64,000 bases of DNA from an uncultured Candidatus Saccharibacteria bacterium. Lineage in GTDB: Bacteria; Patescibacteriota; Minisyncoccia; Minisyncoccales; CAZKCU01. Position numbers and translations under genes: made by a program. Positions 11,016 through 55,825 of the stretch are shown one piece after another. Location: positions 3,081-67,080 of the forward strand of contig CAZKCU010000002.1 of assembly GCA_964551595.1 (NCBI GenBank). The letters run 5' to 3'. The stretch's first letter is position 1. Each line of letters begins with the position of its first letter. The notes below the pieces were generated by a model, which was not told the origin of the DNA, searched no databases, and saw only the letters and a list, made by a program, of their open reading frames with translations.

Positions 11016-11654
11016 ATGACTCATAAGGTTCACCCAAAAGCATTTAGAATAAAAGAAGCAACTGACTGGGATTCTCGTGGATTTTATAAAAAAAACCTTC
11101 CAGAATACCTGAAAGAAGATTTTGAAATTAGAAAATTTCTAAGAAAAAAATTAAAGAATATGGGGGTTGAAAAAATTGAAATTGAAAGGTTTCCAAAGAA
11201 ATTAAATATTATTATTTCGAGTGTTAGGCCGGGTCTTATCATTGGCAGAGGAGGAGGGGGAGTTGAAGCATTAAAAAAAGAATTAGAAAAAGTTTTGACT
11301 ACGTCCTCTTCGGAATTGAGAATTGAGATTAGAGAAATTAAAAATCCTTGGCTTTCCGCTGTCTTGGCTGCAGAGTGGATGGCTCAACAAATCGAGAAAA
11401 GAGTTCACTACCGAAGAGTATTAAAACAGGCTTTAGATAAAATTACAGCTAATAAGGCTGCCCAGGGAGCGAGAGTAGAGGTTGCTGGTAGATTAAACGG
11501 AGTAATGATTTCCCGGACTGAATGGTTAAAGAAAGGTCGTCTTCCTCGCCAAACTCTGAGAGCTGTGATAGATTATGGGAAAGCAAGAGCTTATTGCTCC
11601 TATGGAGTGGTGGGGGTTAAGGTCTGGATATATAAAGGAGAGAAGTTTGAATAA
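11016..11654 (+). CDS. rpsC: 30S ribosomal protein S3
   Basis: HKVHPKAFRI...KH-domain GRGGGGVEALKKEL. Confidence 0.97.
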   Translation: MTHKVHPKAFRIKEATDWDSRGFYKKNLPEYLKEDFEIRKFLRKKLKNMGVEKIEIERFPKKLNIIISSVRPGLIIGRGGGGVEALKKELEKVLTTSSSELRIEIREIKNPWLSAVLAAEWMAQQIEKRVHYRRVLKQALDKITANKAAQGARVEVAGRLNGVMISRTEWLKKGRLPRQTLRAVIDYGKARAYCSYGVVGVKVWIYKGEKFE

Positions 11655-11660
11655 AGAAGG

Positions 11661-11829
11661 ACATCCCAAATTGGAGAGGGGTCGGGAGAACCCTTCGGTT
11701 CTCCCGTATAGGAAAATATTAAAAACAGAGGGTTTTTAAAGAGCGAGCCCGAACCGAGCACATAATACTTTATGTTCTTGGGCCAGCCGTAAGGCTGGAT
11801 GAGGGCGAGCGACTAACTTGGTATTACCA
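11661..11829 (+). repeat. family A structured element, copy 1 (rpsC|rplP gap)
   Basis: 5' module GGAGAGGGGTCGGGAGAACCCTTCGGTTCTCCCGTATAGGAAAATATTAAAAAC. GNRA hairpin CCAGCC-GTAA-GGCTGG at 11783-11798. 3' module GAGGGCGAGCGACTAACTTGGTATTACCA-ATG. Confidence 0.85.
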
Positions 11830-12240
11830 ATGGCTATATTAATTCCACGAAAAGTTAAACATCGAAAATGGCAAAAAGGAAGAAGTAAAGGGAGAGAGAC
11901 TCGGGGGACTGAGCTGGTTTTTGGCAGTTATGGTTTAAAAAGTCTGCAAGAAGGGTGGATTAGTTCTCGCCAAATAGAAGCAGCTAGAAGAACTATCATT
12001 AGATATCTAAAAAAGGGAGGAAAACTCTGGATTAGAATTTTTCCTCAAAAACCAATAACTAGGAAAGGAACAGAAATTCCCATGGGGGGAGGAAAAGGGA
12101 GTGTAGATCATTATGTTTTTCCAATAAAGCCTGGTCGAATTATTTTTGAATTAGAAGGAATAAAAATAACCGAAGCTCAGGAATCTTTAGGGAAAGCAGC
12201 TGACAAATTATCGGTTAAAACAAGATTTATTAAAAGATAA
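11830..12240 (+). CDS. rplP: 50S ribosomal protein L16
   Basis: [18 protein letters not shown]. The start is moved from the TTG at 11818 to the ATG at 11830, because the TTG lies inside the repeat. Confidence 0.95.
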
Positions 12241-12260
12241 ATCATTAATTTTTGTGAAAA

Positions 12261-12360
12261 TAGGAACCTTTCGCTTCGCGAAAGAACCTTGATTTCATAA
12301 TTTTCGCTTCGTTTCCTTAATTGCGAAGCAATTACAGTAGAGCTAAGCGAGCGGTTCCTA
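12261..12360. repeat. palindromic element bounded by TAGGAACC/GGTTCCTA carrying the core box in reverse orientation
   Basis: TTTCGC-TTC-GCGAAA and TAATTGC-GAA-GCAATTA hairpins. The reverse complement of 12315-12360 matches the core box AACCnGTCGCT..CTGTAATTGCTTCGCAATTAAG seen in family A. Confidence 0.75.
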
Positions 12361-12367
12361 AATTTTT

Positions 12368-12544
12368 ATGAAAATAACAGAATTGAGTCAAAAGTCAAAA
12401 AATGAATTGCAGACTTTACTATCTGAAAAAAGAGAGAGATTGCGACAATTAAGATTTAACATATCTTCAGGCAAAGTTAAGAATGTCAGAGAAATTAGAA
12501 TAATAAAGAAAGATATCTCCAGAATATTAACAATATTAAAATAG
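12368..12544 (+). CDS. rpmC: 50S ribosomal protein L29 (58 aa; below ORF-track cutoff)
   Basis: Hand translation gives MKITELSQKSKNELQTLLSEKRERLRQLRFNISSGKVKNVREIRIIKKDISRILTILK. It sits in the expected slot between rplP and rpsQ. Confidence 0.9.
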   Translation: MKITELSQKSKNELQTLLSEKRERLRQLRFNISSGKVKNVREIRIIKKDISRILTILK

Positions 12545-12545
12545 A

Positions 12546-12682
12546 ACATCCCACATCGGAGAGGGGTCGGGAGAACCCTTCGGTTCTCCCGTATAGGAAA
12601 ATATTAAAAACCGAGGGTTTTTAAGAAGCGGTGTTAGTCGAGCGAAGCGAGACGTGCCGCGACCTAACTCGGTATTATCACT
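12546..12682 (+). repeat. family A structured element, copy 2 (short form; rpmC|rpsQ gap)
   Basis: Same 5' module as copy 1. A divergent middle section is followed by the 3' end CTAACTCGGTATTATCACT-ATG. Confidence 0.85.
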
Positions 12683-12916
12683 ATGGTAAAAAGAAAATTA
12701 CAAGGCACAATCATTTCAACTAAAATGAAAAAGACGGTAGTAGTTAAAACAGAGCGAATAAAAGAACACCCGAGATACAAAAAGAGATACAAAGTTCACA
12801 AAAAATATAAAGCCCATGATGAAAGCGAAAAGTGCAAAGTAGGAGATAAGGTTATTATTGAAGAATGTAGGCCAATATCAAAAGATAAGAGATGGAGAGT
12901 AATAAAGAAAGCTTGA
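12683..12916 (+). CDS. rpsQ: 30S ribosomal protein S17
   Basis: KLQGTIISTKMKKTVVVKTERIKEHPRYKK...HDE...GD.V.I.ECRPISK.K.W. Confidence 0.96.
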   Translation: MVKRKLQGTIISTKMKKTVVVKTERIKEHPRYKKRYKVHKKYKAHDESEKCKVGDKVIIEECRPISKDKRWRVIKKA

Positions 12917-13130
12917 ACCACATCGGAGAGGGGTCGGGAGAACCCTTCGGTTCTCCCGTATAGGAAAATATTAAAAACCGAGGGTTTTACAAACCAGTCG
13001 TCGCTCCGCGCCTCCTTGTAATTGCTTCGCAATTAAGAAAGAGCGAGCCCGAAGCGAGGCTGAGATTGTCGAAGCCGAGCGCCAGCCGTAAGGCTGGATG
13101 AGGGCGAGCGACTAACTTGGTATTACCACT
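12917..13130 (+). repeat. family A structured element, copy 3 (long form; rpsQ|rplN gap)
   Basis: Contains the 5' module, the core box (12992-13038), the CCAGCC-GTAA-GGCTGG hairpin (13082-13097) and the 3' module ending ...GGTATTACCACT-ATG. Confidence 0.9.
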
Positions 13131-13502
13131 ATGATACAGCCCCGAACAATGTTAAAAGTTGTCGACAATACCGGAGCTAGAGTCATCCAGTGTTTTCGAG
13201 TTTTGGGTGGTAGCCGCCGGCGTTATGCTCGAATTGGAGATATTATAGTTGCCACCGTAAAAGAAGCTGAACCAAGGAGGATTGTTAAAAAACACGATGT
13301 AGTTAGGGCAGTAATTATTCGGCAAAAAAAAGCCTACAGGAGAAATGATGGTTCTTATATTAGATTTGATGAGCCAGCCGCCGTAATTCTTGAAGGGAAA
13401 ACAAAAGATCCAAAAGGAGGAAGAATTTCCGGACCCGTACCAAAGGAATTAAAAGAAAAGGGATTTGAAAAGATTGCCGCCTTGGCCGAAGAACTAGTAT
13501 AA
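13131..13502 (+). CDS. rplN: 50S ribosomal protein L14
   Basis: [24 protein letters not shown]. Confidence 0.97.
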
Positions 13503-13645
13503 CGCTCGGCAACAAGTTTTAAAGTACCGATAGTTCAAATCCCAGCGAGATTTGACTATCTACATTCTCGTCCCGTCGCTCCGACTTCGTCGGAGACCGT
13601 GTCGACGGGACTGCGAAAGTTACTTTAAAACTTGTTGCCTCGCTT
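13503..13645. repeat. family B palindromic element, copy 1
   Basis: About 20-bp outer stem GGCAACAAGTTTTAAAGTAC/GTTACTTTAAAACTTGTTGCC. Inner hairpins are GATAGTTCAAATC..GATTTGACTATC, GTCCCGTCG..CGACGGGAC and CTCCGAC-TTC-GTCGGAG. It appears near-identical by eye, with scattered substitutions, to 21777-21920. Confidence 0.85.
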
Positions 13646-13707
13646 AAAAATTATTTGTAATTCCGAGCAAAGCGAGGAATCAAGGTTCTGGCGAAGTCAG
13701 GTTCTTA

Positions 13708-13734
13708 TATTCGTAAATATTCGTAATTCGTAGG
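13708..13734 (+). repeat. ATTCGTA heptamer repeat immediately upstream of rplX start
   Basis: TATTCGTAAATATTCGTAATTCGTAGG-ATA-ATG. The same ATTCGTAATTCGTAGG box precedes fusA (3610-3632) and tuf (5893-5908). Confidence 0.7.
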
Positions 13735-13737
13735 ATA

Positions 13738-14043
13738 ATGAAAATAAAAAAAGGCGACCAGGTTCTTATAATTTCCGGTAAAGACAAAGGTAGAAAAAGT
13801 AAGGTTTTAGAGGTTCTTCCTAAAGAGCAGAGAGTTGTAATAGAAGGCGTTAACATAAGAAAAAAACATGTCAGACCGAAAAAGACGGGGGAAAAGGGTC
13901 AAATTATAGAAACACCCGGTTCCGTCCATATTTCTAATCTAAAGCTTATTTGTTTGAAATGCGGAAAAGCAACGAGGGTGGAATATAAAATTGTAGAAAA
14001 GAAAAAATATCGAATTTGTAAAAAATGTGGGCAAGAAATATGA
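13738..14043 (+). CDS. rplX: 50S ribosomal protein L24 with C-terminal Cys4 zinc ribbon
   Basis: KOW motif IKKGDQVLIISGKDKG; C-terminal CLKCG...CKKCG. Confidence 0.95.
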   Translation: MKIKKGDQVLIISGKDKGRKSKVLEVLPKEQRVVIEGVNIRKKHVRPKKTGEKGQIIETPGSVHISNLKLICLKCGKATRVEYKIVEKKKYRICKKCGQEI

Positions 14044-18491: not shown

Positions 18492-18526
18492 CCCTACGAA
18501 TTACGAATTATTACGAATATACGAAT
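18492..18526 (-). repeat. TACGAAT heptamer repeat (reverse orientation of ATTCGTA box) upstream of adk
   Basis: CCCTACGAATTACGAATTATTACGAATATACGAAT. Confidence 0.7.
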
Positions 18527-18534
18527 AAAAATTT

Positions 18535-19200: not shown

Positions 19201-19964
19201 TTTCAATCAAAACTCCAGAAGAAATTACCATAATGGCTGAGGGTGGTAAAATCCTGGCAAAAATTATGGCTGAGATAGGAAGAAAAGTTAAGGCGGGAAT
19301 TAAAACTCGCGAATTAGACAGGCTTGCTGAAAGCCTGATTTTAAAATCTGGAGGAAAGTGTTCGTTTAAAGGACATGAGGGATATCCTTTTTGTCTTTGT
19401 ACTTCAATAAATGAAGAGATAGTTCATGCTTTGCCTTCTGACAGAATCTTGAAAGGAGAAGATATAATTTCCCTTGACCTGGGAATTCTTTACAAGGGCT
19501 TTCATACTGATATGGCAGTTACCCTCCCAGTTACGCGACCCAGCCGCGTAGAGAAAATTGATCCAGAAACTCAAAGATTAATTCGGGTAACAAAAAAATC
19601 CTTGAAAAGAGGAATTAAAAAAGTTCACCCGGGAAATACTTTTGGAGATATTGGAAATACCATTCAAAGATATGTTGAGGGCCAGGGATTTAATGTTGTT
19701 AGAGACCTTTGCGGTCATGGGATTGGTAGAGAATTACATGAAGACCCCCAAATTTTAAATTATGGGAAAAGACATACCGGTCCAGAAATTAAAGAAGGAA
19801 TGGTTTTTTGTATTGAACCAATGGTAACAATGGGGGATTGGAGAATAAAAAAAACCAAAGATGGTTTTGGTTACCAGACAGAGGACGGGTCTCTGTCAGC
19901 TCACTTTGAGCATATGATGGCGGTAACCCAAAATGGATGTCAGATATTGACAAATTTAAAGTAA
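19197..19964 (+). CDS. map: type I methionine aminopeptidase
   Basis: GHGIGRELHE, FCIEPM, SAHFEHMMAVT; ATGA overlap with adk. Confidence 0.96.
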   Translation: MISIKTPEEITIMAEGGKILAKIMAEIGRKVKAGIKTRELDRLAESLILKSGGKCSFKGHEGYPFCLCTSINEEIVHALPSDRILKGEDIISLDLGILYKGFHTDMAVTLPVTRPSRVEKIDPETQRLIRVTKKSLKRGIKKVHPGNTFGDIGNTIQRYVEGQGFNVVRDLCGHGIGRELHEDPQILNYGKRHTGPEIKEGMVFCIEPMVTMGDWRIKKTKDGFGYQTEDGSLSAHFEHMMAVTQNGCQILTNLK

Positions 19965-21776: not shown

Positions 21777-21920
21777 CGCTCGGCAACGAAGTTTCAAAGT
21801 ACTGATAGTTCAAATCCCAGCGAGATTTGACTATCTACATTCTCGTCCCGTCGCTCCGACTTCGTCGGAGACCGTGCCGACGGGACTGCGAAAGTTACTT
21901 TAAAACTTATTGCCTCGCTT
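21777..21920. repeat. family B palindromic element, copy 2
   Basis: Near-identical by eye to 13503-13645, with the same inner hairpins and a slightly decayed outer stem. Confidence 0.85.
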
Positions 21921-21939
21921 TATTAATTTTTTAAACACC

Positions 21940-28093: not shown

Positions 28094-28207
28094 ATGAAGG
28101 TTCGCGCATCAATTAAAAAAATTTGTAAAAATTGTAAAATAGTTCGGCGAAAAGGCCGACTCTATGTTATCTGTAAAAATCCCAAACATAAACAACGCCA
28201 AGGATAG
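28094..28207 (+). CDS. rpmJ: 50S ribosomal protein L36 (37 aa; below ORF-track cutoff)
   Basis: Hand translation gives [37 protein letters not shown]. It sits in the expected slot between infA and rpsM. Confidence 0.93.
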
Positions 28208-28218
28208 TTTTTATAAAT

Positions 28219-28424
28219 AACCCATCTCGGAGAGGGGTCGGGGGAACCCTTCGGTTCCCCCGTGTAGGAAAATATTAAAAACAGAAGGTTTTACAAACCA
28301 GTCGTCGCTCCGCGCCTCCTTGTAATTGCTTCGCAATTAAGAAAGAGCGAGCCCGAAGCGAGGCGAAGCCGAGTGCTGGAGTAAAGCTCCAGAGAGGGCG
28401 AGCGACTAAATTTGAACTACCATT
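28219..28424 (+). repeat. family A structured element, copy 4 (rpmJ|rpsM gap)
   Basis: The 5' hairpin carries a compensatory change (GGGGGAACC-CTTC-GGTTCCCCC, 28240-28261). The distal hairpin is CTGGAG-TAAAG-CTCCAG (28376-28392). The 3' end is GAGGGCGAGCGACTAAATTTGAACTACCATT-ATG. Confidence 0.9.
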
Positions 28425-34827: not shown

Positions 34828-36093
34828 ATGGCTGAAAAATTTATAATTGAAGGTAAAAAACCTCTTGAAGGAGAGATTGAGGTGAGGGGCTCTAAAAATG
34901 CGGCCGGAGCCCTTTTGGCTGCCACTTTACTTACTGATGAAGAATGCCTAATTGATAATCTTCCTCGAATTTCTGATATTTTTAATCTGCTGGAAATTTT
35001 GAAAGAAATGAGAGCAAATGTAGAGTGGATTAATGAAAGGAAGGTTAGAATTAAAGCCGGAGGGAAAGTTGACCCGGAAAAAATAGATTTTGAGAAGATT
35101 TCTAAAGCTCGAATTTCTGTACTTTTAATTGGCGCTCTTTTGCCAAGATTTAAAGAATTTAAGATTTCCAGACCGGGGGGAGATAGAATTGGATTAAGAC
35201 CAATTAGTACTCATTTACAAGCCCTCAAACAATTAGGAGTTGAAATTAAAGAAACTGGTGATTTTTACTATTTTAAATCAACCGGTCTTCGCGGAAAAGA
35301 AATCGTTTTACCGGAATTTAGCGTTACCGCAACTGAAAATTTAATGATGGCAGCTACCTTATCCGAAGGCGAAACCATAATAAAAGGAGCAGCCTGCGAG
35401 CCTCATGTTCAGGATTTGTCTAAAATGTTAAATAGTATGGGTGGAAATATAAAAGGAATAGGGACTCATACCTTGAGAATCCAAGGAGCGAAAAAACTAA
35501 AAGGGACAGTTCACAAAACTATTCCTGATTACCTTGAAGCCGGCACATTTATTATTATGGGAGCTAGCTGTGGCAAAAAACTTAAAGTAGATAACATAGT
35601 ATCTGGACATTTAGATCTTTTTTTAGCCAAATTGAAAGAAGTAGGAGTTGAATTCAGAAGAATAGATGACTCAATTGAAGTTTTGGGGGGAGGAGATTTA
35701 AAGTCAGCTCGAGTTCAAGCTCTTCCTTATCCTGGTTTCCCAACTGACTTATTGCCGATTATTGTTCCTCTTTTGACCCAGGCAAAAGGCAAAAGTTTAA
35801 TCCATGACCCCTTATATCCGAATAGATTTAGTTATGTGGATGAATTAAGGAAAATGGGGGCTGATATTGAAATAGTTGACCCACATCGAGCTTTTGTTTT
35901 CGGCAAAACTCCTCTGAAAGGATTTAGAATTGAATCATGGGATATAAGAGCTGGAGCGGCTCTGGTTTTAGCTGGGCTTTTAGCTCGAGGCAAGACTATA
36001 ATTGAGAATGTGGAGCAAATTGATAGAGGATATGAGAGAATAGAGGAGAGACTCCAAAAGTTAGGAGCAAACATAAAACGAGTAAGTGTTTAA
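34828..36093 (+). CDS. murA: UDP-N-acetylglucosamine 1-carboxyvinyltransferase
   Basis: G.I.V.GSKNAAGALLAATLL; full-length EPSP-synthase-fold protein of MurA type. Confidence 0.95.
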   Translation: MAEKFIIEGKKPLEGEIEVRGSKNAAGALLAATLLTDEECLIDNLPRISDIFNLLEILKEMRANVEWINERKVRIKAGGKVDPEKIDFEKISKARISVLLIGALLPRFKEFKISRPGGDRIGLRPISTHLQALKQLGVEIKETGDFYYFKSTGLRGKEIVLPEFSVTATENLMMAATLSEGETIIKGAACEPHVQDLSKMLNSMGGNIKGIGTHTLRIQGAKKLKGTVHKTIPDYLEAGTFIIMGASCGKKLKVDNIVSGHLDLFLAKLKEVGVEFRRIDDSIEVLGGGDLKSARVQALPYPGFPTDLLPIIVPLLTQAKGKSLIHDPLYPNRFSYVDELRKMGADIEIVDPHRAFVFGKTPLKGFRIESWDIRAGAALVLAGLLARGKTIIENVEQIDRGYERIEERLQKLGANIKRVSV

Positions 36094-36101
36094 AAATAAA
36101 C

Positions 36102-36310
36102 AACCCAAATCGGAGAGGGGTCGGGAGAACCCTTCGGTTCTCCCGTGTAGGAAAAGATTAAAAACAGAGGGTTTTACAAACCAGTCGTCGCTCCGCGCCT
36201 CCTTGTAATTGCTTCGCAATTAAGAAAGAGCAAGCCCGAAGCGAGGCCAAAGACCGAGCGCTGGAGCGAAAGCTCCAGAGAGGGCGAGCGACTAACTTGG
36301 TATTACCACT
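36102..36310 (+). repeat. family A structured element, copy 5 (murA|mreB gap)
   Basis: Long form with the 5' module, the core box, the CTGGAGC-GAAA-GCTCCAG hairpin (36261-36278) and the 3' module ...GGTATTACCACT-ATG. Confidence 0.9.
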
Positions 36311-37318
36311 ATGTTCGTCACAAAAATCGGCATCGATCTTGGAACCTGTAATTCATTAGTTTTTATCCCTGGTAAAGGGGTGGTTTTAGAAGAACCTTCA
36401 GTGGTAGCGGTGACTCTTTCCGAAAATAAAATTTTAGCAGTGGGAGCTGAAGCTAAAGAGATGACTGGCCGGACTCCTGATACTATCAGAGTTTACCGCC
36501 CCCTAAAAGATGGAGTTATTGCTGAATACCGAATTACTGAGGCCATGTTGAGATATTTTATTACCAAGACAAGTGGTAAGTTCCGGCTTTTCAAGCCTGA
36601 GTTAATAATTGGAGTACCGGCCGGTATTACCTCCACTGAAAGAAGGGCGGTAATTGAAGCTGGTCTTGCTGCTGGAGCTAAGGCTGTCTATGTGGCAAAA
36701 GAGCCAATTTTAGCAGCCATTGGGGCCGGTATTCCTATTAATTCTTGTTCCGGACATATAATTATTGACATTGGCGGTGGGACATCCGAGGTGGCGGTAA
36801 TTTCTCTTGGAGGAATAGTTGCCTCTAATTCAGTAAGGACTGCCGGTGACAAAATGGATTCGGCAATCGCAGATTATATTAAGAAAAAATATAATTTAGC
36901 CATAGGTTCCCAGACTGCCGAGGAAATAAAAATAAAAATCGGCACCGCCTCAACCGAGGAAGAGGAAAGATATTTGGAAATTCGGGGGAGGGATTTAATT
37001 TTAGGGTTACCACGAACGATTAAAATTTCTTCTAATGAGGTCTGCGAAGCAGTTTCTGATGTCTTGACTGAAATTATTCAGGTAGTTAAACAAGTTCTAA
37101 GAGACACTCCGCCTGAGTTATCTGCTGATATTATGGACAAAGGAATGATTCTTTCAGGAGGTGGAGCCTTGCTTAGAAATATTGATGAGATGGTAGCCCA
37201 GGCAACCGGGATACCCTGTTTTATAGCTGAGGAACCTTTGTTATGCGTGGCTAAGGGAACAGGAATCGTCTTGGAAAACTTAGATGTATATAAAAAGAGC
37301 ATAATGTCAAAAAAATAA
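36311..37318 (+). CDS. mreB: rod-shape protein MreB (paralog 1)
   Basis: IGIDLGTCNSLV, EPSVVA, IIDIGGGTSEVAVISLGG. Confidence 0.93.
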   Translation: MFVTKIGIDLGTCNSLVFIPGKGVVLEEPSVVAVTLSENKILAVGAEAKEMTGRTPDTIRVYRPLKDGVIAEYRITEAMLRYFITKTSGKFRLFKPELIIGVPAGITSTERRAVIEAGLAAGAKAVYVAKEPILAAIGAGIPINSCSGHIIIDIGGGTSEVAVISLGGIVASNSVRTAGDKMDSAIADYIKKKYNLAIGSQTAEEIKIKIGTASTEEEERYLEIRGRDLILGLPRTIKISSNEVCEAVSDVLTEIIQVVKQVLRDTPPELSADIMDKGMILSGGGALLRNIDEMVAQATGIPCFIAEEPLLCVAKGTGIVLENLDVYKKSIMSKK

Positions 37319-37320
37319 AC

Positions 37321-37395
37321 GCGATACTAATATGCTAATACATACTAATGATACTAATAAAATTCGTATAATTAGTATCAATTCGTATATTGGCA
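37321..37395. repeat. AT-rich palindrome from ATACTAAT/ATTAGTAT and ATTCGTAT units
   Basis: GATACTAATATGCTAATACATACTAATGATACTAAT...ATTCGTATAATTAGTATCAATTCGTATAT. Confidence 0.65.
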
Positions 37396-37402
37396 TCGAT
37401 TT

Positions 37403-38293
37403 ATGTTGATTGGTCACCAAAAACAATGGCAATTTTTGAGAAAATCCGCAGAAATTGGAAGAACTTCCCATGCTTATTTATTTGTTGGTCAAGCCCAATT
37501 AGGGAAAAAAACTTTAGCTATTGAATTTGTTGAAAGGCTTTTTAATGAGGATATCCAGACAAGACAACATCCTGATTTTATTTTTGTCGAGCCCCAAAAA
37601 GGTGAAATCCAAATTTCTCAGATTAGAGAATTTATCCGGAGGTTGTCTTTCAAGCCCTTAATATCTTCTTTCAAAGCAGCAATTATAGATCAGGCTCATT
37701 GTATGAATCAGGAAGCTCAGAACTGTCTTTTAAAAACCCTTGAGGAACCAAAAGGCAGAGCCATTTTAATTTTAATAACTGAATATCCGGAAATATTGTT
37801 TCCGACCATCCTCTCAAGATGCGAAATCATAAAATTCTATCCGGTGAAGAAAATAGAGATTAAAAAATATTTAGAAAGCCAAGGAATTCCCAAAAAAGAA
37901 ATTGAAGAATTAGTCCGTTCTTCTATGGGGAGGCCGGGAGTAGCCATAGATTTTATTTCTGACTCTCGGAAATTAGAAAATCAAAGAAAAGCAATAAAAG
38001 ATTTAATTAAATTTTCAAATTCAGAATTATCCACTCGTTTTCAATATGCCAAAGATTTGTCTCAAGACCCTCAGAGCTTAAGAAAAATTTTAGATATTTG
38101 GCTGAGATGTTTTAGAAATGTTTTGCTGGCTCAAAGTGCAGGTCAAAAGCCTTCAAACGGCCTTCAATTTAATAATTACTCTTCCTCCAGAATAAGAAAA
38201 ATTCTTAAACTTATTCAAAAAATAAATTTTTTAATTAAAAAGACCAATGTCAATCCAAGACTGGCTTTGGAAATATTAGCGATACAATTATAA
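37403..38293 (+). CDS. holB: DNA polymerase III delta' subunit
   Basis: SHAYLFVGQAQLGKKTLA and SRCEIIKF (sensor-1-like) motifs. Confidence 0.85.
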   Translation: MLIGHQKQWQFLRKSAEIGRTSHAYLFVGQAQLGKKTLAIEFVERLFNEDIQTRQHPDFIFVEPQKGEIQISQIREFIRRLSFKPLISSFKAAIIDQAHCMNQEAQNCLLKTLEEPKGRAILILITEYPEILFPTILSRCEIIKFYPVKKIEIKKYLESQGIPKKEIEELVRSSMGRPGVAIDFISDSRKLENQRKAIKDLIKFSNSELSTRFQYAKDLSQDPQSLRKILDIWLRCFRNVLLAQSAGQKPSNGLQFNNYSSSRIRKILKLIQKINFLIKKTNVNPRLALEILAIQL

Positions 38294-41451: not shown

Positions 41452-42504
41452 ATGTTAAATAAAATTTGGAGGACATTTTTTCAAGACATTGCCATTGATT
41501 TGGGAACAGCCAATTCTCTTGTTTATGTCAGAGGCCGGGGGATTGTGATTGCAGAACCTTCGGTAGTAGCTATAAACCGAAAAACTGGTCAAATTTTAGC
41601 CATAGGAGAAGAGGCTCGAAAGATGGTTGGTCGAACTCCGGCTCATATTGTAGCTACCCGGCCTTTGGTTTCAGGAGTAATTTCTGATTTTGATGTTACT
41701 GAACAAATGTTGAGATATTTTATTGAAAAAGTTCATAAAAGAAAATTTATCCTCAGTCCCAGGCCTCGAGTAATTATTGGTATTCCTTGCGGGGTAACTG
41801 AGGTGGAAAAAAAGGCAGTTGAAGATGCGGCAAAAAATGCTGGAGCAAGAGAAGTCTATTTAATTGAACAACCGATGGCAGCTGCTATCGGCGCTCGGCT
41901 CCCGGTTCAAGATGCCGGAGGTAATTTTATTGTTGACATTGGAGGAGGAACAACTGAAGTAGCAGTAATTTCTTTAGGGGGAATAGTTATTGCCAAAAGC
42001 CTGAGAACTGCCGGAGATAAACTTAATGAAGACATAATTCAATTTGCTCAAGAAGAATATAAGTTATTAATTGGAGAAAGAACGGCCGAGGAAATTAAAA
42101 TTAACATTGGTTCTGCCTATCCGCTCAAAGAAAAAAAAGAAATGCCTCTTCGGGGAAGAAATTTAGTTACAGGTCTCCCTGAAGAAATTTTAGTCTCTGA
42201 CGAAGATATTAGAAGGGCTTTAAAAAAATCGGTTAGCCAGATTATTGCAGCCATAAAAACTACAGTCGAGGAAACTCCTCCAGAACTTCTTGCTGATGTT
42301 ATGGCAAGCGGTATTTATCTTGCTGGCGGCGGTAGTCTCTTGCGGGGGTTGGATATCCTGGTTGCAAAAGAGACAAAAATTCCTGCCAAAATCGTTGATG
42401 ATCCTCTGACAGCGATGGTTAGGGGAGGAGGGTTGGTTTTAGAGAATCTTGATGAATTACATGAGGTGTTGGTAGAGACAGAGTATTTAGAATCACCAAA
42501 ATAA
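41452..42504 (+). CDS. mreB: rod-shape protein MreB (paralog 2)
   Basis: IAIDLGTANSLVYV, EPSVVAI, IVDIGGGTTEVAVISLGG. Confidence 0.93.
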   Translation: MLNKIWRTFFQDIAIDLGTANSLVYVRGRGIVIAEPSVVAINRKTGQILAIGEEARKMVGRTPAHIVATRPLVSGVISDFDVTEQMLRYFIEKVHKRKFILSPRPRVIIGIPCGVTEVEKKAVEDAAKNAGAREVYLIEQPMAAAIGARLPVQDAGGNFIVDIGGGTTEVAVISLGGIVIAKSLRTAGDKLNEDIIQFAQEEYKLLIGERTAEEIKINIGSAYPLKEKKEMPLRGRNLVTGLPEEILVSDEDIRRALKKSVSQIIAAIKTTVEETPPELLADVMASGIYLAGGGSLLRGLDILVAKETKIPAKIVDDPLTAMVRGGGLVLENLDELHEVLVETEYLESPK

Positions 42505-44847: not shown

Positions 44848-44876
44848 TTGATTTTTATTAAAAACTACGATATAAT
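44848..44876 (+). promoter_or_regulatory. sigma70-type promoter TTGATT-17nt-TATAAT for the tRNA cluster
   Basis: The -10 box ends 5 nt before the first tRNA nucleotide. Confidence 0.6.
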
Positions 44877-44881
44877 AACGC

Positions 44882-44952
44882 CGCGGGGTGGAGAAGTAGT
44901 ATCTTGCGAGGCCCATAACCTCGAGACGCTGGTGCAATTCCAGTCCCCGCAA
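44882..44952 (+). tRNA. initiator-like tRNA-Met (CAU) with non-canonical D/T loops
   Basis: C1-A72 mismatch (CGCGGGG...CCCCGCA-A), as in bacterial tRNA-fMet. The anticodon loop is CCCAUAA, the D-loop AGUAGUA has no GG, and the T-loop is UGCAAUU rather than UUCNANN. No CCA is encoded. Confidence 0.7.
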
Positions 44953-51306: not shown

Positions 51307-51729
51307 ATGAAAAAAATTAAAGCAGTAATTAAGCTTCAAGCCCCAGCTGCAAAAGCAACACCAGCACCGCCAGTTGGTCCAACTTTAGCTCAGTATGGTT
51401 TAAATATTGCTGAGTTTTGCCAAAAATTTAATGAAGCAACAAAAAACCAAGAAGGTTTTACTATTCCGGTAGAAATTACAGTTTATGAAGACCGGACTTA
51501 TGATTTTAAATTAAAATCTCCACCAGCTTCTGAATTTTTAAAAAAAGCTGCCGGGATTGAGAAAGGCTCTGGCGAACCTAATAAAACAAAAGTCGGAAGG
51601 ATTACCAGAGAGCAATTGAAAAAAGTAGCTTTGCAAAAAATGGCCGATTTAAATACCGATAATATTGAAAAGGCAATAAAGATAATCGAAGCGACTGCCA
51701 AAAACATGGGAATTGAAATCAGCGACTAA
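51307..51729 (+). CDS. rplK: 50S ribosomal protein L11
   Basis: [28 protein letters not shown]. The start is trimmed to the ATG at 51307. Confidence 0.96.
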
Positions 51730-51744
51730 CTTAACATTATCACT

Positions 51745-55128: not shown

Positions 55129-55781
55129 AAAACATCGCTAAAATTATCGACCACACAAATATAAAACACACTGCGACTGTTAAAGACATCAAAAAAACTT
55201 GTCAGGAAGCCAAAAAATACGGTTTTCGGGGAGTTTGTGTTAATCCAGAATGGGTAAAATTAGTTAAAAAAGAGCTAAAAGGAACTAACATTAAAGTTGT
55301 TTGCTTAATAGATCCGCCAATAGGAGGCAGTTCCCACCAAAAGAGGATGGAGCAATGCCTGAAAGCAAAACAAGATGGAGCTGATAATTTGGATGTAGTA
55401 ATGAAAATTAATGTGGCAAAACAAGGAAAGTGGGATGAGGTTTTAAAAGATTTAAAACAAATCTGCGAAATTGCACCAACCAAAGTAATTATTGGTTCGG
55501 GTTACTTGACTGATGAAGAAATAAAAAAAGCCTCAGAAATTGTCAAGAAAGCTGGTGCTATTTGTGTTAAAACATCAACTGAAAAAGGGCCCTTAGAACA
55601 CCGAGAATTAAAGGAAAAATTCTATCATTTAAAATTGATGAAAAAAGCAGCTCCAGGACTTTTAATTAAAGCTGCTGGAAAAATTAGAAATTTATCAGAT
55701 GCCAAAGAAGCTATCAAAGCCGGCGCAGATATTATTGGAACAAGTTCGGGAGTAGAAATAATAAACGAAACTAAAAATTGA
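55125..55781 (+). CDS. deoC: deoxyribose-phosphate aldolase
   Basis: IDHTNIK, GVCVNP, and the Schiff-base lysine context VKTSTE. There is an ATGA overlap with tmk. Confidence 0.88.
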   Translation: MKNIAKIIDHTNIKHTATVKDIKKTCQEAKKYGFRGVCVNPEWVKLVKKELKGTNIKVVCLIDPPIGGSSHQKRMEQCLKAKQDGADNLDVVMKINVAKQGKWDEVLKDLKQICEIAPTKVIIGSGYLTDEEIKKASEIVKKAGAICVKTSTEKGPLEHRELKEKFYHLKLMKKAAPGLLIKAAGKIRNLSDAKEAIKAGADIIGTSSGVEIINETKN

Positions 55782-55825
55782 CAGAGGACGGGCCTCTGTC
55801 AAACTTACAGAGGACGGGTCTCTGT
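55780..55825. repeat. two tandem short hairpins, family F
   Basis: GACAGAGG-ACGGG-CCTCTGTC at 55780-55800 and ACAGAG-GACGGGT-CTCTGT at 55807-55825. The second is 19/19 identical to a segment inside map (19878-19896). Confidence 0.8.

Follow-up and report, generated by a model that had tools for sequence, protein, structure and literature searches.

Family A is a repeated, structured element that fills five gene junctions in the 64-kb window analysed here (the whole of a stretch of contig CAZKCU010000002.1, 64,000 nucleotides (nt) long). The G+C content of this window is 35.5%; the S10-spc-alpha ribosomal-protein cluster lies within it, and nearly all of its genes are on the + strand. An initial annotation, made from the letters alone, had treated the element as a feature of the S10/spc operon. 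We find instead that it is spread over Parcubacteria, ahead of more than 25 gene families, and a search of the full-text literature found no description of it. Family A is a real, structured RNA family that is widespread in this group.

The five copies of the annotation were all found where it had placed them, all on the + strand. They had been said to begin near the upstream stop codon and to end exactly at the downstream ATG; all five start 0–11 nt past the stop codon and end at the ATG. The division into short, intermediate and long forms was borne out by comparing the five. They are listed here with their parts (helices P1, P2 and P3 are described below; scores are those of a covariance model):

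11661–11829, + strand: Copy 1, intermediate form, from the S3 stop (11652–11654) to the L16 ATG (11830), 142.9 bits; 5′ strand GGAGAGGGGTC 11673–11683, P1 11684–11705, junction GTATAGGAAAATA 11706–11718, P2 11719–11739, P3 11743–11749 with 11804–11810, apical GNRA hairpin 11783–11798, GAC and tail 11811–11829, the tail (..TTACCA before the ATG) being 2 nt shorter than usual
12546–12682, + strand: Copy 2, short form, from the L29 stop (12542–12544) to the S17 ATG (12683), 143.2 bits, the window copy closest to the family consensus; 5′ flank ACATCCCACATC 12546–12557, 5′ strand 12558–12568, P1 12569–12590, junction 12591–12603, P2 12604–12624, P3 GCGGTGT 12628–12634 with GTGCCGC 12654–12660 (three G·U pairs), GAC 12661–12663, tail CTAACTCGGTATTATCACT 12664–12682
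12917–13130, + strand: Copy 3, long form, from the S17 stop (12914–12916) to the L14 ATG (13131), 131 bits; 5′ strand 12925–12935, P1 12936–12957, junction 12958–12970, shortened P2 12971–12991, organism-specific insertion ~12992–13040 (including the hairpin TAATTGC-TTC-GCAATTA, 13019–13035), P3 13043–13049 with 13103–13109, GAC and tail 13110–13130
28219–28424, + strand: Copy 4, long form, from the L36 stop (28205–28207) to the S13 ATG (28425), 117.6 bits; 5′ strand 28229–28239, P1 28240–28261, P2 28275–28295, P3 28347–28353 with 28397–28403, tail TAAATTTGAACTACCATT 28407–28424
36102–36310, + strand: Copy 5, long form, from the stop of a MurA-like (EPSP_synthase-family) gene (36091–36093) to the MreB ATG (36311), 127.1 bits; 5′ strand 36112–36122, P1 36123–36144, P2 36158–36178, P3 36230–36236 with 36283–36289, tail 36293–36310

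The 22-nt P1 hairpin (GGGAGAACC-CTTC-GGTTCTCCC) occurs five times in the window at ≤3 mismatches, against 0.00 expected from shuffles, and the 3′ module three times at the same threshold, against 0 expected; the covariance model recovers exactly the five copies. Among them, the arms of the apical GNRA hairpin vary in sequence and retain complementarity, and P1 of copy 4 carries a compensatory change from A-U to G-C (GGGGGAACC/GGTTCCCCC). A sixth, tail-like stretch (51721–51744, + strand) was rejected as a copy (13 bits, E = 0.45). It consists of the last L11 codons (stop TAA 51727–51729) and a 15-nt junction, CTTAACATTATCACT, followed by the dCTP-deaminase ATG, and its resemblance to the Family A tail indicates that the tail is close to the generic start context of the genome.

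The ~45-nt core box of the long forms is present, but private to this organism: a pattern scan of loci retrieved from metagenome-assembled genomes (MAGs) of relatives and from metagenomes (labelled L and three digits) matched only L001, which is the same strain as the window. A candidate alternative fold put forward in the annotation, in which GCCUC would pair with either of two GAGG tracts, uses an inserted segment that is likewise private to this organism. That all copies lie on the coding strand is weak evidence within the window, because nearly all of its genes are on the + strand; the rule does hold in ~140 copies elsewhere. The strain of the window was also present on metagenome contigs of the Joint Genome Institute.

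From 5′ to 3′, a copy consists of a flank that is often present (aaCAuCCCAnAUC), a strand that does not vary (GGAGAGGGGUC), P1 (GGGAGAAC/GUUCUCCC, its loop variable), the junction strand GURUAGGAAAA, in some copies an inserted hairpin, P2 (UUARAAACC-GNG-GGUUUYUAA), ARGA, P3 (7 bp, with a variable apical part of 0–2 hairpins), GAC(C)U and a tail (RACUNNG-UAUUAC-CACU) that leads into the gene start. Copies are 110–220 nt long, and their 5′ strand, junction strands and 3′ tail are nearly invariant.

When 27 copies were aligned independently with MAFFT, 92.8% of cells were paired; sliding the partners lowered this to 58% at most. Two-sided change affects 8 pairs, a number equalled in 0 of 500 shuffles. 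Among 83 distinct metagenomic copies, 18 pairs show two-sided change, including all nine P2 pairs and six of the seven P3 pairs, and one P2 pair alternates between G-C and A-U at 41:39; this alignment leans towards structure because it was fitted to the covariance model. P3 comes in three versions, GCGAGCC/GGCGAGC (with tandem G·A), GCGGUGU/GUGCCGC (with three G·U) and GUCCCGC/GCGGGAC, and RNAalifold unaided recovers P1 and P2. We regard P1, P2 and P3 as proven by these sequence comparisons; the element had been called structured, and compensatory changes together with G·U and tandem G·A pairs on the sense strand support all three helices.

A fourth, closing helix probably surrounds the core. 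One candidate pairs GAG.GGUC with GACYU..CUN (88.7% paired, one-sided changes only); the other pairs CCC of the 5′ flank with GGGG and competes with the first for the G-rich 5′ strand. Neither is proven, because that strand never varies. Two other contacts, a kissing of the loops of P1 and P2 and a helix between the tail and the 5′ half of P2, were both rejected, as a by-eye comparison of copies gave no covariation.

The same helices bear on whether the element acts in DNA, either as a promoter or as an operator bound by a dimeric transcription factor. P1 does form a perfect inverted repeat of 9 bp, and 16 of 19 positions of the tail CTAACTTGGTATTACCACT agree with the −10/start region of L102's L27 promoter (CTAACATTGTATTATCACT). 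The G·U and tandem G·A pairs of P3, by contrast, are not palindromic in duplex DNA and are valid on the sense strand only, which favours RNA, or that DNA strand alone, over a duplex operator. Moreover, a scan for sigma-70-type promoters and intrinsic terminators found none within the elements. The tail was rejected as a sigma-70 −10 box, since the spacing is wrong and the would-be A at position 2 and T at position 6 are not conserved in column counts, and by eye as a sigma-54, extracytoplasmic-function or T7-like promoter. We consider a DNA-level role highly improbable.

Searching GTDB species representatives with a pattern of the two conserved strands that border P1 gave 30 stretches; with one exception they lie in Patescibacteria/Parcubacteria MAGs (Nealsonbacteria, Paceibacteria, Minisyncoccia and others), often several per genome. 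A stretch in a 'Syntrophus' MAG is a chance pattern match, whose sequence the covariance model does not recognise. A related pattern gave more than 119 metagenome stretches among the matches listed, and viral contigs searched for Family A gave 0 matches. The annotation had advised a covariance-model search of relatives; the model, built from 27 copies, gave 96 and 48 further matches in the retrieved loci and, with the window, at least 148 distinct sequences, or ~150 copies in Patescibacteria/Parcubacteria MAGs and metagenomes.

Placement of these copies follows the next gene. Of 141 assessable distinct copies, 110 have a same-strand open reading frame (ORF) starting directly after them, with ATG in 106 (96%); the offset to the start is identical in 92 of the 110, and the rest are shifted by −6 to +11 nt. 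Eleven copies precede a tRNA (Glu 4, Tyr 3, Ala 3, Lys 1); its +1 sits, to within 1 nt, where the A of the ATG would be. The other 20 have no recognisable gene start after them. The linked genes are mostly highly expressed housekeeping genes, the same ones recurring across genomes: those for ribosomal proteins L14, L16, L20, L27, S18, S17, S13, S11, S8, S3 and L15, for SecY, RnpA, MreB, GroEL, DnaK, ClpP, GlmS, AtpE, MraZ, NusA and NusG, and for tRNAs. Orientation tracks the abutting gene even where the upstream gene is divergent (L003, L010). The annotation had reasoned that random orientation and position, no covariation and no effect on downstream expression would together leave a plain selfish repeat; 121 of the 141 copies abut a same-strand gene start, and the helices covary. 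An antisense full-length copy lies in the L16–L29 junction of a minus-strand ribosomal-protein operon (L101, 6494–6644, + strand, 117.6 bits), its core intact and its tail degenerate.

Two observations concern particular neighbours. The window has two MreB paralogues 5 kb apart (36311–37318 and 41452–42504), with a Family A leader on the first only. In three loci (L076 3537–3726, L099 731–876 and L082 439–628), copies are flanked by an inverted repeat, TGTCAAG..GTGGAAAA / TTTCCAC..TTGACA, and are followed by a canonical promoter (TTGACA-17-TAAAAT or TATAAT) in place of a gene start.

No Shine–Dalgarno (SD) motif was found upstream of any gene in the window. The L30 gene is missing between S5 and L15 (16770–16778), and the L1 gene is missing after NusG-L11 (51307–52323), where genes for dCTP deaminase, a ThyX-like protein and Tmk stand instead; these gaps place the organism among the Parcubacteria (candidate phyla radiation) that lack uL1 and uL30. 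The anti-SD motif is missing from about half of Parcubacteria, a set that overlaps with those without uL1, and many have no bS21 (PMC9297842). The window organism probably lacks an anti-SD too. Its 52 genes without the element start in a context with A−3 (0.60), A−6 (0.62) and U−1 (0.65), with G depleted from −8 to −1. The Family A tail has the same bias as the genome, only stronger (A−3 in 83 of 93 copies, A−6 in 89 of 94 and U−1 in 86 of 94). A−3 and A−6 are positive determinants of SD-less initiation in Flavobacterium (PMC6847099). The tail thus has the A−3/A−6, low G and lack of SD of a Kozak-like, SD-independent start of the kind known from Bacteroidia, with only moderate predicted accessibility. 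An SD-independent start, as the annotation had suggested, fits the missing SD and a tail that matches the start context of the genome, and leaves the tRNA-linked copies unexplained.

Where canonical promoters are visible (TTGACA-17-TAACAT or TATAAT), the −10 ends 16–28 nt upstream of GGAGAGG, which places the element within the transcript, near its 5′ end. Such promoters are no more frequent upstream of copies (12 of 122) than upstream of control gene starts (43 of 562), so the element would play two parts, primary 5′ leader and intercistronic spacer. At 44848–44882 of the window, 5 nt separate the end of a canonical promoter (TTGATT-17-TATAAT) from the +1 of tRNA-Met, which would accordingly be transcribed with almost no leader.

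Behind the tail, the tRNA +1 of 11 copies and the A of the AUG of 92 ORF-linked copies share one position to within 1 nt. This, together with the prevalence of AUG starts, is also what a processing 'punctuation' signal would give, in which an endonuclease cuts polycistronic transcripts at the 3′ edge, so that mRNAs become leaderless and tRNAs gain their mature 5′ ends. RNase P substrates usually have U at −1; its frequency is 0.48 in the other tRNA leaders here. The tRNA-Met promoter suggests, in addition, that starts almost at +1 are tolerated in the lineage. Against such a cut, the ATG is shifted in ~15% of ORF-linked copies, the conserved A−3 and A−6 matter only if the leader stays attached, the element matches no known ribozyme or tRNA-like model, and no nuclease is known to cut at the 3′ edge of an upstream structure. 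We judge this explanation improbable.

With respect to known families, Rfam 15 at gathering score found only 4 tRNAs in the whole window. At E ≤ 10, region 11600–13800 gave five chance-level matches, none on the strand of the element, and in 20 related loci Rfam returned tRNA, transfer-messenger RNA and 5S only; as the annotation had it, Family A fits none of the described RNA families, among them the Rfam models of ribosomal-protein leaders, riboswitches, self-cleaving ribozymes and HEARO/IS605-orfB RNAs. Neither ARAGORN nor Rfam's tRNA model called a tRNA inside any copy. The element does not show the features that define MITEs (miniature inverted-repeat transposable elements), the ends and targets of palindrome-associated transposable elements (PATEs), repetitive extragenic palindromes (REPs) and bacterial interspersed mosaic elements (BIMEs), ribosomal-protein leaders or tRNA-like punctuation. 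It does have the conserved junction nucleotides and covarying stems of an aptamer-like, riboswitch-type core. As for an expression platform, the elements contain no terminator-like site and no SD to sequester, and there are two candidate partners for the G-rich 5′ strand.

Three resemblances were examined and set aside. Copies 1 and 3 contain a hammerhead-type core, CUGGAUGAG, that the other copies do not keep. Pairing of the tail GUAUUACC with the 530 loop of 16S rRNA was dismissed; the 16S fragment of a relative reads GGUAAGAC, and the 530 loop is not available for pairing. The antisense of the 3′ side of P2 (for example, 12615–12630) reads CGCUC(U/C)UUAA(A/C)AA, an 11/12 match to rrn boxA GCUCUUUAACAA, on the wrong strand for the G·U pairs.

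An aptamer-typical design of invariant junction strands, covarying stems and variable insertions at stem tips invites the idea of a global regulatory leader, riboswitch-like or protein-binding, through which one signal would control transcription elongation, RNA decay or access to the start site of a 'growth' regulon (ribosomal proteins, tRNAs, chaperones, NusA/NusG and division genes). One element does stand ahead of mRNA and tRNA genes alike and sits at the classical operon boundaries S17–L14 and L36–S13, and its G-rich 5′ strand has two mutually exclusive partners, CCC of the 5′ flank and GACYU of the tail. We nevertheless think such a leader quite unlikely, given no terminator or other recognisable expression platform, no enrichment of canonical promoters, no two-sided covariation in either closing helix (the 5′ strand being invariant) and no known ligand or partner protein.

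Occupancy of orthologous junctions varies widely. In 20-odd ribosomal-protein clusters, S17–L14 is most often occupied, and L36/IF1–S13 is also frequent; these correspond to the S10/spc and spc/alpha boundaries in E. coli. Other ribosomal-protein junctions are occupied sporadically, and S3–L16 in the window only. When filled and empty orthologous junctions are compared, the whole unit from aacaUCCCA to UAUUACCACU arrives with the element. The empty ones are 1–20 nt long, consistent with the annotation's statement that such junctions are normally ≤20 nt, and lack TACCACT, which indicates that the tail belongs to the element.

The S10-spc-alpha operons are unusually plastic in this lineage: junction lengths among ~25 related clusters range from overlap to ~670 nt, and many of the long ones are without Family A.

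Copies within one genome share private loops, insertions and tails, which indicates that the family spreads and is homogenised. Truncated copies consist of the 5′ module only (L097), lack the 5′ module (S14–S8 of L015) or lack P2 (L4–L23 of L015). An insertion of ~100 nt in P2 (..AAGCTTCCGTTYAYGGAAGC..GGTCAAAGAGATAAATCTCTTT..; L147 6741–7006, L010 5171–5411, L042 and L066 4039–4198) is partly shared with an unrelated junction filler, so modules appear to be exchanged between cassettes. For orthologous S17–L14 copies, meanwhile, identity over the first 83 nt from the 5′ end is 76–88% in eight of nine pairs and 61% in the remaining one, where a copy is truncated; the tails are nearly identical, and the four-fold sites of the L14 genes beside them are 38–51% identical in eight of nine pairs, that is, saturated. 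Family A both spreads and is constrained by selection.

These observations bear most directly on a selfish mobile element (of the single-stranded-DNA PATE-like, MITE-like or retro-element kind) whose hairpins would serve its own mobility, and which would survive only in the tiny stop-to-start junctions of a compact genome because its 3′ end supplies a usable start context. The variable occupancy with empty sites of 1–20 nt, the private features held in common within a genome, the antisense copy of L101, the truncated and module-swapped mosaic copies and the contigs that often break in or near copies all speak for it. Also in its favour, sheared G·A and G·T pairs form in DNA hairpins too. Yet inverted ends are limited to a 4-nt GGTC/GACC, the other inverted repeats inside copies being internal helices, and no conserved left-flank target was found, the left flanks being stop codons or varied AT-rich sequence. 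No target-site duplication emerged either from comparing filled and empty junctions or from 96 copies, in which k-mers of a copy's own flank match the tail no better than cross matches, generic motif aside; an identical 10-mer on both sides of L059 was rejected as a duplication by the same comparison. The ORFs of the window scanned with Pfam included no transposase, TnpA (Y1), TnpB, RAYT or reverse transcriptase. L14, L20, L27, S18, S13 and tRNA-Glu/Ala/Tyr, in addition, are occupied repeatedly in diverged genomes, orientation follows the abutting gene despite a divergent upstream gene, and viral contigs gave no match. A mobile element had been the annotation's own alternative; variable occupancy, concerted evolution, the antisense copy and the mosaics agree with it, but not the missing ends, duplication, target and transposase. 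We consider it unlikely.

Among described systems, Family A is nearest in kind to modular structured intergenic repeats and multi-copy cis-regulatory leaders, and is a member of no family tested. Like the BOX elements of Streptococcus pneumoniae (boxA-boxB-boxC; PMC3049150), which are transcribed into stable structures and can affect neighbouring genes, it is multi-copy, modular and intergenic; in both, modules can be missing or multiplied, and no mobilising enzyme has been identified. BOX, however, has no fixed register to the start codon, occurs in both orientations within a narrow species group and lacks deep conservation with covariation across genomes saturated at synonymous sites. The REP/BIME and Correia repeats of proteobacteria are likewise small, repeated, palindromic intercistronic units whose action is at the level of RNA, as stabilisers or RNase III sites. 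REPs, though, are simple hairpins of ~35 nt, usually 3′ of genes and mobilised by RAYT, whereas Family A has several helices in one domain and is bound in position to the following gene's 5′ end; it has neither the terminal inverted repeats nor the TA duplication of Correia. With IS200/IS605-derived PATEs it shares small size, strand specificity, subterminal hairpins and the lack of inverted ends or duplications; PATEs differ in their similar end hairpins and conserved tetra- or pentanucleotide left target (P1 and P3 of Family A are unrelated and its left flanks vary), and no TnpA or TnpB was found near Family A among the window ORFs.

The autoregulatory leaders of ribosomal-protein operons (S10/L4, spc/S8, alpha/S4, L20) are structured, occupy the same sites (S17–L14, L36–S13, L20, S18, L27) and act on translation start regions, as proposed for Family A. 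They are single-copy, mimic the rRNA site of one protein and differ by operon, whereas Family A is one element before dozens of unrelated genes and before tRNAs. 5′ stabilisers and intercistronic elements that define ends (the ompA 5′ stem-loop, the stabilisers of B. subtilis and chloroplast intercistronic protein-binding sites) also place a stable structure on the 5′ end of an mRNA segment or close to it; such a structure can protect against 5′-end-dependent decay while the start region stays open. For copies with a visible promoter, a Family A transcript would similarly begin within ~10–20 nt of the first helix. Known stabilisers are individual and unrelated in sequence, in contrast to a repeated family with invariant single-stranded blocks. 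T-boxes, finally, occur in many copies per genome before different genes, with a conserved core and variable stems, but they have a terminator/antiterminator platform and a specifier and precede aminoacyl-tRNA-related genes only, whereas Family A has no terminator and no Rfam similarity.

The reading that we tentatively prefer, and hold to be quite possible, is that Family A is a selected, transcribed, multi-copy, cis-acting 'gene front-end' cassette of Parcubacteria that spreads by duplication or recombination. We infer that it is co-transcribed with the downstream gene and affects stability and translation. The cassette would be transcribed as the 5′ leader or intercistronic spacer of the abutting gene, with a core of P1, P2 and P3 (and the probable closing helix) followed by a conserved, G-poor tail of 12–20 nt that ends at the start codon. 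The stable core would give the downstream RNA a protected, self-contained 5′ domain and, as insulation, keep upstream sequence from pairing with the start region. The tail would present the AUG in the optimal SD-independent context of the lineage (Kozak-like A−3/A−6/U−1), so that the gene could be translated de novo, with no use of an SD and probably with no anti-SD. Copies would move between gene starts by duplication or recombination and then be kept by selection. Upstream of tRNAs, the cassette would act as a leader only, to be removed by RNase P.

Several observations weigh against this cassette reading. Predicted accessibility of the tail is only moderate (unpaired probability 0.3–0.65). 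In tRNA-linked copies, A−3 is present in 11 of 11 tails read directly, as conserved as before ORFs, and other tRNA leaders in the lineage have no such A bias. The same tail before tRNAs means that a purely translational role cannot be the whole story; its conservation there needs either homogenisation by gene conversion or a second, translation-independent function. Structure, sense strand and start context support the RNA-level role put forward in the annotation, and translation by itself is insufficient for it. In several relatives, S17–L14 or S3–L16 is an unfilled junction of −4 to +3 nt (0–3 nt in L015 and L101), and any given junction can do without Family A. The invariant single-stranded blocks GGAGAGGGGUC and GURUAGGAAAA look like a specific binding surface, which the cassette reading leaves unused.

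A further possibility is that Family A is a ribosome-recruiting or handing-over RNA (like an internal ribosome entry site or a shunt) or a riboswitch-like master leader, in Parcubacteria without SD or anti-SD. In the first version, the closing helix may join the upstream stop to the downstream AUG, and the invariant purine strands may dock on the platform of the 30S subunit; in the second, ribosomal-protein, tRNA, chaperone and division genes may be under one signal. Either is, in our view, unlikely to hold. If one did, Family A would represent a new type of device that controls gene expression globally and has its own way of reaching new genes.

An RNA family of ~150 copies with a solid fold, invariant single-stranded blocks and a fixed register to the starts of the most highly expressed genes offers a testable handle on how bacteria without SD/anti-SD pairing, uncultured Parcubacteria among them, choose and rank their start codons. 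It also indicates that the normally rigid ribosomal-protein operons of streamlined genomes are remodelled by structured cassettes that come and go between lineages, which bears on how regulatory RNAs spread in minimal genomes. The copies matter for gene calling and binning as well, since they break assemblies and lengthen 'intergenic' DNA.

Other repeats and fillers occupy junctions in these genomes. In the window, the 127-nt L16–L29 junction (12241–12367) holds a different structured element of GCTTCGC/GCGAAGC mini-hairpins that also ends at an ATG (hairpins CTTTCGC-TTC-GCGAAAG and AATTGC-GAA-GCAATT). A 143-nt repeat, folding as a long hairpin with arms GGCAACAAGTTTTAAAGTA / TACTTTAAAACTTGTTGCC, is present in two copies with 94% identity, in the L14–L24 junction (13514–13656) and upstream of the triose-phosphate isomerase gene (21789–21931). 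Runs of ATTCGTA/TTCGTAA heptads, which look like repeated regulator binding sites, lie just upstream of EF-G, EF-Tu and L24 (3606–3633, 5881–5908 and 13708–13735), and also at ~18495–18534 (reversed, before adk) and ~37363–37402 (before the gene at 37403). The small hairpin ACAGAGGACGGGYCTCTGT occurs three times (19872–19896, 55775–55799 and 55801–55825), the last two in tandem just before GatB.

Among relatives, the 16S rRNA gene of L082 (2897–2993 and 4160–5625) is interrupted by large insertions, one of which has an ORF-like stretch, with an Rfam group II intron D1-D4 match near them. Another junction filler of relatives ends in AATTTTTAATTTAGCGAAGYGCYT directly before the ATG (L066 3795–3857 and 4039–4198; L019 4003–4103), which means that Family A is not the only cassette of these genomes to stop precisely at a start codon.

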